Positions 53,808-56,417 of a DNA stretch of 64,000 bases are shown one piece after another. The position numbers and the translations under genes are program-made. The number at the start of each line of letters is the position of its first letter. Position 1 is the stretch's first letter. The notes beneath the pieces were generated by a model. The model made no database searches, had not been told where the DNA came from, and was given only the letters and a program-made list of their open reading frames with translations. This DNA is from Acidobacteriota bacterium (GTDB lineage Bacteria > Acidobacteriota > UBA4820 > DSQY01), in NCBI GenBank assembly GCA_049968315.1, contig JBMFRA010000006.1:647-64646 (forward strand). Direction: 5' to 3'.

Positions 53808-56417
53808 ATGAAGGGCGCCGCGTTGGGGCTCTGCCTTCTGGGAGTACTGGAGGCCGCGGCGGCCCGGGGTGAAGTTCCTTCCGCCCCCCCGGAGGTGAAG
53901 GCCGTGCCCGGTCCCGTTGCCCCCCTCTCCGAACCCCAGCCGCCCTGCGGCGAGGCCGCCCGGGTCACCGCCATCGTTCCTTCGGCGGACGGCCTGGACC
54001 TCCAGGGAGAGGGGCCTTTTCACCCGGCGCCGCTCAGGGCCGAAGGGGTTTCGGAGCGGGGGCTCTCCGGCTTCTCCCGCCTTATCCTGGAGATCGAGAA
54101 CGCGAGGCCCGAAGGCCTTCCCCCCCGCCTCTTTTGGGAAAGCGGCCCCTTCGCCGAGGCCCGCCTTCGACTTCTGAGGAACCCGTCGGGGTGCCCCCTC
54201 CTGCGGGTGGAGCTCCTTCTCCGGGGGGAGGGACCTTGGGAGATTGTCACCGAGCCGAAACAGCTCAAGATCCGCCGCCCAGCCGGTCGGCCCGGCCCTG
54301 GGCCGACGGGGGGCGAGTCCCTCCAAGCGGCCCGGTCCTTCCGCTTTTCCCTGGGGGGCGCCCTCTCGGAGCTGGGGGGAGGCGAGGGCCGCCTCCGCTC
54401 GGGAAACGTCCAGCTCGCCTACGCCCAGCAGACACGCCTCGGCCTCCTTCGCGCCTTCGCCGCCTCCTACTCCCCCCGCGGCGCGGGCTCGGGAGCCCCC
54501 TACGGAGGGGCAGCCCTCTCCGCCATTCCGGCGGGCCCCTTCCTCCTGGGCGCCGCCGCCGGGGACCTCCAGACCACCTTGGGGGGCGGTTCGGGGACCT
54601 TCCTCTCCCCCACCACCCTCCTTCTCCGGGGAGGGGCGGTGACCCTTTCCCGGGGGGGAGTGCGTCTGGCGGTCTTCTCCGGGCAGGCGGCCTCCCCCGC
54701 CCTCACCCGCCTCCCCGACGCCAGCGGCGTCCTTCCGGAGATCGGCCCCGGCCACCTCCGGGGGGCGGAGGTCTCCTTCGCCGTGGAACCCCTGCGGCTG
54801 GAGGTGGCGGCGGGCCTTCTCCAAAACCGCCCCCAAGGTGAAAAGGAATGGCAAAACGCCTTCCTCTCCCTCGCCGTCCATCCAGTCTCCGAAGGCGAAG
54901 CCCGCCTTCTCCTGGAAGGCTCCAGCGGCGGCGGCTGGGCGGCCACGGTGGAACCCCGGTTAAGCGGCCCCACCTTCAGCCTCGGCGGCTACTACCGCTA
55001 CGCGGCAAAGGACTTCCGCCCCCCCCTGGGGACCAGCCTCTTCGCCTCCCTGCGGCACGGCTACAACCTCTACGGTACTTCCCGGCTGGCGGAGGGCCTT
55101 ACGGCCACCCTCGCCCTGAGCCAGAGCAAGTCCTTCAGCCTCTTTGACCCCGCCGCCGTGGGGACCCTCTCCTCCAACCAGACCGCCTCCCTCGGCTGGG
55201 CGGCGGGGAGGGGTTTCACGGCGGGGATCTTCGCCTCCCGAAGCGAGAGTCGGTCCGACCCCGGGGCCGCGGTTCCCACCCGGGCTCGTTCCGAAAACGC
55301 CGGCCTCTCCCTCTCCTGGGGAAGGGGATCCTCCTCCGCTTCCCTTCGCCTTTCGCGGGAGAGGGTCCGGGACGACTTCCGCCGAAACCAGGACCTCACG
55401 GCCCTCCGGCTCGACGGCGAGGGGCGGCACACCTTCGGCGGCGGGGCCGAAGGCCGCCTCCTTTTCCGGTTTTACGACGGCCAGCGGCCCTCCGGGGAGC
55501 GGGTGAACCGGTACTACGAGGCCCGCGCCGAGGGGCGGTGGCGGCTGGGCCCCTCGGGCGCCCTCAGCCTGGACCTGGGTCTCTCGGAGACGCCGCCGGG
55601 GCCCGCCCTGGTGCGGGTCCGTCAGGAAAGCGCCGGAGCGGGCCTGGATCTGGGGGCGGGTGGCCTTCGGGGCTCCCTCCGGGTCTCGGCCTTCCGCCAA
55701 GAGGTGGAAGGCAGGCGCCCTCGGAACGGGTTCTTGGCCCAGGTGAACCTCGGCGGCCTCTTCCAGCGTGGGGCGCGGCCTCCCGCGGCCCCCGCCGAGG
55801 GAAGGGCCCTGCCCCTTCCCTTCGAGGCCCCCGAGGCGGGGACCCTCCGGGTCCTGGCCTTCTGGGACGAAAACGGAAACGGCCTCCGGGAACCCGGCGA
55901 GGCTCCCCTGCCCGCCGCCGTTCTCCTCGACGGCCGCCGGAGGCTCCTCTCGGCGGAGGGGGAAGGCCGGTTCGCGCTCCTACCTGGCCGCCACCGGGTG
56001 GAGGCGGAGTGGTCGGGCCCCCTGGTGGATGGCTTTCTGCCCCAGGCCTCCCACACGGTGGAGGTGGAGGCGGGCCGGACCTTAGAGGTCACCTTTCCCG
56101 TCCGGCCGGCGGGAAGGGTGGAAGGGCGCCTAGCCTTCCAGGGGACCCTCCCCTCCCCCGGCGCCCTGGCCCAGGTTCGGATCACCGCCTCGGCGGGCGG
56201 GGTCTTGCGAGAAGCCGTGACCGACGAGCAGGGTTTCTTCTCCTTCGGGCCGTTACCGGAGGGAAAGGCGCGCATCGTCCTCGACGGAACCACGCTGGCG
56301 GAAGGCGTGGTGGCCGCCGGGCCCACAGAACAGGAGGTGACCATCGTCCGAAAAGAGACCACCCAAACGGTATTTTCTCTGCGGGCGGCCACGGCCCGCG
56401 AACGGATCCTTAAGTGA
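53808..56417 (+). CDS. Secreted/outer-membrane protein: AMIN-like N-domain + long amphipathic beta-rich (barrel-like) region + two CarboxypepD_reg-like C-terminal domains
   Basis: Signal peptide MKGAALGLCLLGVLEAAAA. An AMIN-like segment (LILEIENARPEGLPPRLFWESG...LLRVELLLRGEGPWEIVTEPKQLKIRRP). About 500 aa of Gly/Ser/aromatic-rich alternating pattern typical of OM beta-strands (...YYRYAAKDF...LFASLRHGYNLYG...). C-terminal LRVLAFWDENGNG...RVEGRLAF domains. Confidence 0.6.
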   Translation: MKGAALGLCLLGVLEAAAARGEVPSAPPEVKAVPGPVAPLSEPQPPCGEAARVTAIVPSADGLDLQGEGPFHPAPLRAEGVSERGLSGFSRLILEIENARPEGLPPRLFWESGPFAEARLRLLRNPSGCPLLRVELLLRGEGPWEIVTEPKQLKIRRPAGRPGPGPTGGESLQAARSFRFSLGGALSELGGGEGRLRSGNVQLAYAQQTRLGLLRAFAASYSPRGAGSGAPYGGAALSAIPAGPFLLGAAAGDLQTTLGGGSGTFLSPTTLLLRGGAVTLSRGGVRLAVFSGQAASPALTRLPDASGVLPEIGPGHLRGAEVSFAVEPLRLEVAAGLLQNRPQGEKEWQNAFLSLAVHPVSEGEARLLLEGSSGGGWAATVEPRLSGPTFSLGGYYRYAAKDFRPPLGTSLFASLRHGYNLYGTSRLAEGLTATLALSQSKSFSLFDPAAVGTLSSNQTASLGWAAGRGFTAGIFASRSESRSDPGAAVPTRARSENAGLSLSWGRGSSSASLRLSRERVRDDFRRNQDLTALRLDGEGRHTFGGGAEGRLLFRFYDGQRPSGERVNRYYEARAEGRWRLGPSGALSLDLGLSETPPGPALVRVRQESAGAGLDLGAGGLRGSLRVSAFRQEVEGRRPRNGFLAQVNLGGLFQRGARPPAAPAEGRALPLPFEAPEAGTLRVLAFWDENGNGLREPGEAPLPAAVLLDGRRRLLSAEGEGRFALLPGRHRVEAEWSGPLVDGFLPQASHTVEVEAGRTLEVTFPVRPAGRVEGRLAFQGTLPSPGALAQVRITASAGGVLREAVTDEQGFFSFGPLPEGKARIVLDGTTLAEGVVAAGPTEQEVTIVRKETTQTVFSLRAATARERILK

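Follow-up and report, generated by a model that had tools for sequence, protein, structure and literature searches.

A predicted outer-membrane barrel protein with an usher-like layout heads a sigma-54 transcription unit in an Acidobacteriota genome

To our knowledge, export routes that are confined to the outer membrane and are independent of ATP are few, namely the chaperone-usher, type V, curli, Fap and Slam routes. The usher is made of a barrel of 24 strands, an internal plug, an N-terminal domain (NTD) in the periplasm and two C-terminal domains, CTD1 and CTD2 (PMC8410936). In this paper we looked at a stretch of 64,000 nucleotides (hereafter the window) from an Acidobacteriota bacterium (assembly GCA_049968315.1, contig JBMFRA010000006.1) and in particular at gene A (53808..56417, + strand), which encodes an 869 amino acid protein that is predicted to be an usher-like outer-membrane protein. 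In its structural model A has four of the five usher-defining parts, the missing one being the plug. The protein is laid out like an usher and at the same time is not placeable in the usher family, and we analyzed its sequence, its model and its operon in order to describe what it may do.

The model was built with AlphaFold2 from an alignment of 21 family members (21-80% identity) and has a mean predicted local distance difference test (pLDDT) score of 79 and a predicted template modelling (pTM) score of 0.67; with an alignment of only five sequences, the first half of the central region was modelled poorly (mean pLDDT 54). From the N-terminal to the C-terminal the model shows the signal peptide, a β-sandwich (amino acids 51-156), a disordered linker, 26 strands, a proline-rich linker, two further sandwiches (678-778 and 791-860) and a short helix. 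The Sec signal peptide (MKGAALGLCLLGVLEAAAARG, 53808..53870, +) has no lipobox and appears in the model as a helix (residues 4-11) with low pLDDT. The N-terminal sandwich of ~110 amino acids (residues 46-156; 53943..54275, +) contains the conserved Cys47 and Cys129 and is predicted to be periplasmic. It is followed by the predicted transmembrane β-barrel (residues 176-654; 54333..55769, +), which has ~26 strands and a longest loop of 17 amino acids, and by the proline-rich linker (55770..55838, +), which carries the conserved sequence P-x-A-P-x3-R-A-L-P-L-P-F and joins the barrel to the C-terminal domains. The first of these domains (residues 678-778; 55839..56141, +) is an SdrD_B-like sandwich with the motif F-x-D-x-N-G-N/D-G-x-x-x-x-x-E, and the second (residues 785-860; 56160..56387, +) is a CarboxypepD_reg domain, which is seen both by Pfam and in the model. 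At the very C-terminal there is a family-wide motif, R-x-A-T-A-R-E-R-I/F (residues 859-868; 56382..56411, +), which is predicted to form a short helix; it lies beyond the CarboxypepD_reg domain, is nearly invariant in relatives down to 21% identity and is better conserved than that domain.

DSSP analysis of the model gives 26 long antiparallel strands of 9-19 residues each between residues 176 and 654, which may correspond to a barrel of 24 strands plus a hairpin. Averaged over the family, the hydrophobicity alternation within these strands is 0.66, versus 0.46 ± 0.066 in shuffled sequences. The connections between the strands alternate between long (mean 8.0 residues) and short (mean 2.8 residues), and the long loops are on the side that is expected to be extracellular if the N-terminal is periplasmic. 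Based on the even number of strands and on this loop asymmetry, the N-terminal domain and both C-terminal domains would all face the periplasm. The last strand ends in a β-signal-like sequence, NLGGLFQR, which in most of the 21 relatives reads N-x-G-x-L-F-x-W. The initial annotation, which was made from the DNA sequence, had proposed to look for a terminal aromatic residue in the barrel region; such a residue is found as Trp in most relatives and as Phe at position -2 in A, whose last position is taken by Arg. All of the generic features of outer-membrane barrels, i.e., a signal peptide, an even number of amphipathic strands, alternating loops and a β-signal-like motif, are therefore present in A. 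Together with the structural matches to ushers and porins that are described below, these features agree with the central outer-membrane barrel that the initial annotation had suggested, and the model shows a barrel rather than a soluble fold of immunoglobulin (Ig)-like domains throughout. A is thus very probably an outer-membrane barrel protein with periplasmic sandwiches at both its N- and C-terminals.

The segments between the strands are short: the longest is 17 amino acids (between residues 399 and 417) and the turn from strand 6 to strand 7 is 2 amino acids long. Usher plugs are ~75-80 amino acids in size, and since no inter-strand segment in A is longer than 17 residues, the barrel has no plug-type insert. 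Another observation on the barrel regards strands 3-8 (residues 213-326; 54444-54785), which are Gly/Ala-rich and weakly amphipathic and hold most of the family-invariant residues (G252, D253, R274, G275, G292, and R301). These strands were not placed by AlphaFold2 when five sequences were used and were confidently placed with 21, and they may serve as a lumen-facing or gating element of the plugless barrel.

A Foldseek search with the model against the PDB results in full-length FimD, in several complexes, or PapC at all of the first 12 ranks (E values of 3e-17 to 5e-10 over ~800 columns). After the ushers comes a Gram-positive collagen-adhesin-like protein, which matches the C-terminal domains of A, and further down there are barrel-only FimD (1e-7), the OccK/OprD porins (1e-7 and weaker), MtrB (6r2q_B, 6.7e-7) and TonB-dependent receptors (~1e-5). 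Full-length ushers therefore lead the other barrel proteins by 7-10 orders of magnitude, and no secretin is found among the top 50 matches. The initial annotation compared A to PilQ and AmiC. Ushers are the more apt comparison, since both the domain order and the top PDB matches are those of FimD and PapC.

The families to which the flanking domains belong can be assigned only in part. CarboxypepD_reg (PF13620) is found in A at residues 785-856 with an E value of 2e-8 (34.9 bits, versus a gathering cutoff of 32.3); it is the only domain that Pfam recognises in this protein, and it is matched by 19 of the 21 family members. The sandwich that precedes it is SdrD_B-like: 15 of the 21 members match SdrD_B (PF17210; best E value 1.9e-13), A by itself giving a weak match (E value 0.1), and the family profile finds the SdrD B-domains in the PDB at 8e-10 with the motif F-x-D-x-N-G-D-G-x5-E aligned. 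This domain also carries a Ca-binding-type motif, D-x-N-x-N/D-G. When A was searched by sequence against the PDB, the useful matches were only SdrD and NOMO, which align to the C-terminal domains. SdrD_B and CarboxypepD_reg are members of the same transthyretin-like clan. The initial annotation described two CarboxypepD_reg-like sandwiches at the C-terminal; both sandwiches are there and the second is indeed CarboxypepD_reg, and the first is to be corrected to SdrD_B-like. Its description of the N-terminal domain as AMIN is not supported. AMIN (PF11741) is not matched in A even at E ≤ 10, and in all the Pfam searches, with the whole protein, with the 21 relatives and with 17 isolated N-terminal domains of the family, one marginal match was obtained (one of the 17 isolated domains, E value 0.055). 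A profile of the N-terminal domain finds only filamin in the PDB (E value ~1). The term AMIN-like thus describes at most a pattern resemblance of this ~110 amino acid sandwich.

By a word-indexed protein search, A has only five close relatives. When a profile of these relatives was run with HMMER exhaustively over 1.84 billion cluster representatives, ~20 full-length representatives of the family were obtained: there are 23 matches at E < 1e-30, and all weaker matches cover only the C-terminal ~200 residues. The family is tiny and, where a source is named, it comes from Acidobacteriota metagenome-assembled genomes (MAGs). Regarding the C-terminal module, a 1064 amino acid protein from a Gemmatimonadales MAG (locus L014, 5673-8867) is 31% identical to A over 180 amino acids, and has in common with it only the RA(L/F)xLPF linker and the SdrD_B-like/CarboxypepD_reg-like module. 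Large proteins from outside Acidobacteriota may thus have taken up this periplasmic module as well.

Gene A is real, and a sigma-54 transcription unit begins with it. The long open reading frame at 53598-56417 has an in-frame ATG at 53808 that is preceded by a GGGAGG Shine-Dalgarno ribosome-binding site, and the 869 amino acid translation from this ATG is identical to an Acidobacteriota MAG protein at NCBI, which the Prokaryotic Genome Annotation Pipeline (PGAP) names 'MSCRAMM family protein'. The 16 bases at 53769..53784 (+; TGGCATCCTTCTTGCT) are an exact match to the sigma-54 (-24/-12) consensus TGGCAT-N5-TTGCT and lie 24 nt 5' of this ATG. In the window, whose G+C content is ~70%, three sigma-54 sites with one mismatch or less were observed versus 0.8 expected by chance. 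The gene upstream of A stops at 53512, and behind it lies a strong intrinsic terminator (53540..53562, +) with a 10-bp stem, nine of whose pairs are G-C, and a T-run, which sets the operon apart as its own transcription unit. No sigma-70-like promoter was found across 53300-64000. All these data bear out the claim of the initial annotation that A is the first gene after a sigma-54 site. Similar sites are found 5' of the A orthologues at 9962 of locus L001 and at 180 of locus L002, and were not found 5' of the A genes in loci L003, L004 and L005. As for the activator, the window was scanned for GAFTGA and the related motifs that mark enhancer-binding proteins, and none was found. In one distant lineage a PAS-HisKA kinase and an NtrC-type sigma-54 activator lie just 3' of the cluster (L003, 12827-15705, as well as L004), and are candidate cognate regulators; the window has no such pair.

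Downstream of A we find six genes, B to G, on the same strand, which are separated by 25-57 nt or overlap by 4 nt, and each of which begins with a typical Sec signal peptide. For B to F our gene models agree exactly with the PGAP proteins, and PGAP names four of these 'hypothetical'. The operon contains no ATPase or inner-membrane gene. Gene B (56443..57099, +) encodes a 218 amino acid Sec-exported orphan, a candidate polymerising subunit, with the motif LTVTIPGVVG near the mature N-terminal and a GTYTxTxT strand at the C-terminal. Its family consists of 26 clusters in 5.8 billion sequences, none of which bears a name or a Pfam domain, and where a source is given it is again an Acidobacteriota MAG. 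The alternating-hydrophobic LTVTIPGVVG segment, as we infer from the sequence, would sit where a donor strand would, and the GTYTxTxT strand aligns with the last strand of E. coli pilins with hhalign probabilities of 24-44% over only 17 columns. Gene C (57157..58044, +) encodes a 295 amino acid Sec-exported orphan, which probably carries two Ig-like domains and is a candidate periplasmic chaperone. It has a weak PapD_N-like signal: PapD_N is the top marginal Pfam match in one of the seven C members (E value 0.15), and domain 2 of C aligns with the start of E. coli PapD-like chaperones with hhalign probabilities of 23-26% over 45 columns only. The signals between C and the chaperones and between B and the pilins are below threshold, and weakly point the same way as an usher-analogous reading. 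Gene D (58041..58898, +), which encodes a 285 amino acid Sec-exported orphan, starts 4 nt inside the end of C. None of B, C, and D has a significant Pfam, NCBIfam or PDB sequence match, Pfam searches at E ≤ 10 gave single marginal matches, and PDB sequence searches with B, C, D, and E gave nothing useful. We also looked with hmmsearch and hhalign for paralogy between C and D and for a B-like domain in E, F or D, and found nothing significant.

Gene E (58895..61405, +) encodes an 836 amino acid Sec-exported protein that is present in every complete locus. The first ~480 amino acids, to which no domain is assigned, are followed by a right-handed β-helix, and this C-terminal half matches Beta_helix, NosD and DUF1565. 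Gene F (61402..63222, +) encodes a 606 amino acid Sec-exported protein with an Ig_7 domain, and its position varies in other loci. Gene G (63369..64000, +), which runs off the end of the window, is a paralogue of B with 25% identity and has a second sigma-54-like site (TGGTACGGCCCTTGCT, 63323..63338, +) 31 nt 5' of it. Having such a site of its own would suit G as a major subunit that is expressed separately and perhaps highly. The arrangement is the same in L001, whose A is 64% identical to ours, with a sigma-54 site at 19490 before a G-like gene at 19536.

Seven other contigs have the order A, B (in one or two copies), C, D, E; their A is from 80% down to ~26% identical, and what surrounds the cluster (housekeeping genes, ETF genes, and regulators) differs at every locus. 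In the related loci the cluster is not accompanied by any ATPase, inner-membrane protein, glycosyltransferase, cytochrome or transporter that is kept with it. Tight spacing, the 4-nt overlaps, the 5' terminator, the sigma-54 start and the lack of a sigma-70-like promoter also support these genes being one operon. Directly 5' of A in the window there is a gene (52367-53512, +) for a 381 amino acid, coiled-coil-rich protein, which has its own terminator and only weak matches (in Pfam to DUF948 and ZapB, in NCBIfam to a Cbp1-family adhesin); its L001 orthologue has a weak DUF7121 mark. This protein is kept beside the cluster only in L001, the closest relative, and therefore is probably not part of the gene A system. 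Further upstream are two ordinary housekeeping genes, a fused formiminotransferase and cyclodeaminase (FTCD; 49297-51411, +; FTCD_N, FTCD, and FTCD_C with E values down to 9e-77) and, 3' of it, a SpoU/RlmB-type ribosomal RNA methyltransferase (51518-52303). The N-terminal of the FTCD protein, as read mechanically from the open reading frame, is ~95 amino acids longer than in the 608 amino acid L001 orthologue.

What then is the function of A? A barrel with flanking sandwiches, Sec-exported operon products and a kept synteny make an export conduit the most natural reading, and we lean, with some reserve, towards A being an export or assembly conduit for the operon proteins, analogous to an usher and belonging to an undescribed pathway. 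The initial annotation had also thought of A as the export conduit for the downstream secreted proteins. The secretion of these proteins and their link to A are sustained by the Sec signals and by synteny down to ~26-35% identity, and it is the conduit role itself that we infer. In such a pathway, an enhancer-binding protein would activate the sigma-54 promoters found before A and G, and the proteins A to G, with their Sec signal peptides, would pass the inner membrane via Sec. A would then form its ~26-strand barrel with the N-terminal and the two C-terminal sandwiches oriented to the periplasm. C, and perhaps D, would keep B, G, and E (plus F) while they are periplasmic and bring them to the periplasmic domains of A, and the cargo would pass through the barrel to be displayed or polymerised on the cell surface. 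The energy for this last step would come from folding or from strand complementation, because the operon has neither an ATPase nor an inner-membrane component.

One of the questions that such a mechanism raises is how the pore is closed. Having no plug insert, the barrel must be gated by a periplasmic domain or linker of A itself or by a partner protein, and its short loops likewise make it probable that one of these closes the lumen. An alternative that starts from the same feature is a surface-exposure complex of the plug-and-barrel kind, like LptD/LptE or MtrB/MtrA, in which the lumen of A, rather than letting a series of substrates through, permanently houses D, C or the N-terminal of E, so that the β-helix protein or enzyme is anchored at the surface, and B and G are accessory surface proteins. 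LptD and MtrB too have ~26 strands, and a pore of this size with very short loops and no plug must be occluded. MtrB is among the Foldseek matches, one member of the A family matches MtrB_PioB, and C, D, and E are a strictly conserved 1:1 partner set. Yet, in Foldseek MtrB comes 10 orders of magnitude behind the ushers, LptD does not appear within the top 50 matches and the operon encodes no lipoprotein partner. This alternative also leaves unexplained the three periplasmic sandwiches of A and why the small subunits are duplicated and have a sigma-54 promoter to themselves, and we regard it as unlikely.

The β-helix of E raises other options, in which A handles glycans. In one of them A would work as a large and specific porin for the import of oligosaccharides, which E, as a pectate-lyase or CASH-like enzyme at the surface or in the periplasm, would release; B, C, D, F, and G would have binding or accessory roles, much like their counterparts in polysaccharide-utilisation loci, and the sigma-54 promoters would reflect nutrient regulation. 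E orthologues do match Pel9A-like_beta_helix, NosD and Beta_helix, the likeness of the barrel alone to the OccK/OprD channels in Foldseek equals that to usher barrels, and sigma-54 commonly controls nutrient-acquisition operons. Nevertheless, the cluster has no conserved association with an inner-membrane transporter, a cytoplasmic catabolic enzyme, a TonB box or plug, or a SusD-like gene, and E has no catalytic-family match above the generic β-helix repeats. A plugless 26-strand pore with short loops would also be far wider than the known specific channels, and the three periplasmic domains of A are again not explained, so that an uptake or glycan-processing module seems to us quite improbable. 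An even more remote option is that A is the exit porin of a synthase-dependent exopolysaccharide pathway, like AlgE, PgaA or BcsC, with E as an AlgG-like periplasmic modifying enzyme. Here too a β-helix protein (NosD/CASH) adjoins an outer-membrane barrel, just as AlgG, a β-helix epimerase, is encoded beside the AlgE porin. Against this, no glycosyltransferase, synthase, Wzx/Wzy, copolymerase or TPR scaffold is found in any of the seven loci, where the flanking genes are unrelated housekeeping genes that differ from locus to locus, and the A barrel is much larger than the polysaccharide porins, which have 16-18 strands; we see very little chance that this is the function of A.

Coming back to the usher-analogous conduit, several of our own results weigh against it and should be considered together. 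The evidence on the gene A system is entirely computational and comes from uncultured genomes (MAGs). The Foldseek template modelling (TM) scores of A are low (0.27-0.38), as is expected for multi-domain proteins with mobile domains. Barrel-only FimD (1e-7) is no nearer to A than the OccK porins (1e-7) or MtrB (7e-7), and the advantage of the ushers in Foldseek stems from the flanking sandwiches; the specific likeness to ushers thus lies in the architecture. Unlike in ushers, the barrel has no plug and probably ~26 strands instead of 24, and its flanks come from the SdrD_B-like and CarboxypepD_reg families and not from PapC_C. By sequence, hhalign of the A family versus the five E. coli K-12 ushers (FimD, HtrE, ElfC, YehB, and YraJ) gives a probability of 1.2%, and Usher, PapC_N and PapC_C are not matched in A at E ≤ 10. 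The operon as a whole shows no significant sequence homology to chaperones or pilins, with no significant PapD match in Pfam, and D versus the E. coli chaperones gives an hhalign probability of 0.1%, i.e., no signal.

Based on the hhalign and Pfam results, true homology of A to ushers was rejected at the sequence level. The HMMER profile scan of the 1.84e9 representatives with the A family also did not reach any usher, and in the 21 members there is no Pfam match (E ≤ 0.1) to Usher, PapC_N, PapC_C, Secretin, POTRA, Plug or TonB_dep_Rec. The statement of the initial annotation that A is not an usher or a secretin by motif is therefore correct. Marginal Pfam matches, each from single members of the family, were to OMP_b-brl and to MtrB_PioB (E value 0.017). 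Two-partner secretion of the TpsB/Omp85 type was also considered, and no POTRA, ShlB or Haemagg_act match was found in A or E. The porin-cytochrome, TonB-receptor, TpsB, secretin and polysaccharide-porin readings were all rejected, as their defining domains or partner genes are lacking.

A more far-reaching option is that the operon encodes a fibre-assembly or secretion pathway that evolved independently as an analogue of the chaperone-usher pathway, is made of at least four orphan families (A, B/G, C, and D) and is confined to Acidobacteriota; we offer this only as a tentative proposal, about which we are more doubtful than convinced. In such a pathway the plugless ~26-strand A could, if our somewhat speculative view is right, replace the usher and export small polymerising subunits together with a large β-helix protein as tip or cargo. 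Whether it would be a genuine donor-strand fibre system is likewise doubtful in our view, albeit conceivable. A literature search for an usher-like system in Acidobacteria found nothing. If the proposal is true, an usher layout was assembled from unrelated families, which means that the design of periplasmic docking domains plus a giant barrel arose more than once; the alternative to such an independent origin is that A diverged from ushers beyond recognition. With such a pathway, four orphan protein families would also gain their first functional handle, as would the surface structures of Acidobacteriota, an abundant and poorly cultured phylum. The plugless ~26-strand barrel poses a concrete and testable question on gating. 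Should A prove to be no more than a large porin that has periplasmic domains, ours would be a modest finding.

Looking at the known systems one after the other, A shares with PilQ and AmiC a ~110 amino acid N-terminal sandwich before the main part of the protein, with a loose AMIN-like strand pattern. Unlike them, it has no AMIN match and no secretin domain, and its barrel is monomeric, whereas the secretin is multimeric. The joining of a CarboxypepD_reg domain to a large outer-membrane barrel is known from the Oar-type TonB-dependent receptors, in which the CarboxypepD_reg is N-terminal and a Plug domain that has a TonB box sits in a barrel of 22 strands. In A this domain is C-terminal, and neither Plug nor TonB_dep_Rec is matched. 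With LptD and MtrB/PioB, A has in common the ~26 predicted strands, the short loops and the lack of an internal plug; it differs from them in having no match to an LptD-type N-terminal jellyroll and no cytochrome or LptE-like lipoprotein partner, and in having C-terminal periplasmic domains. Ushers differ from A in several respects besides those already weighed: the conserved RxATARER helix at the C-terminal of A, the gene order with the usher-like gene first, the sigma-54 control, the obligatory large β-helix protein, and the two accessory proteins of ~290 amino acids instead of one PapD chaperone of ~230 amino acids. The likeness to ushers is nevertheless found at many levels. A has 869 amino acids versus 878 in FimD of E. 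coli K-12 (a 2,637-nt gene), and it has the same succession of a signal peptide, a periplasmic N-terminal sandwich, a very large monomeric barrel and a tandem of two C-terminal sandwiches in the periplasm, with the β-signal being internal since the barrel is internal. As with ushers, it is encoded in an operon that has no ATPase, together with small secreted proteins that may be subunits and with predicted periplasmic proteins that are probably Ig-like.

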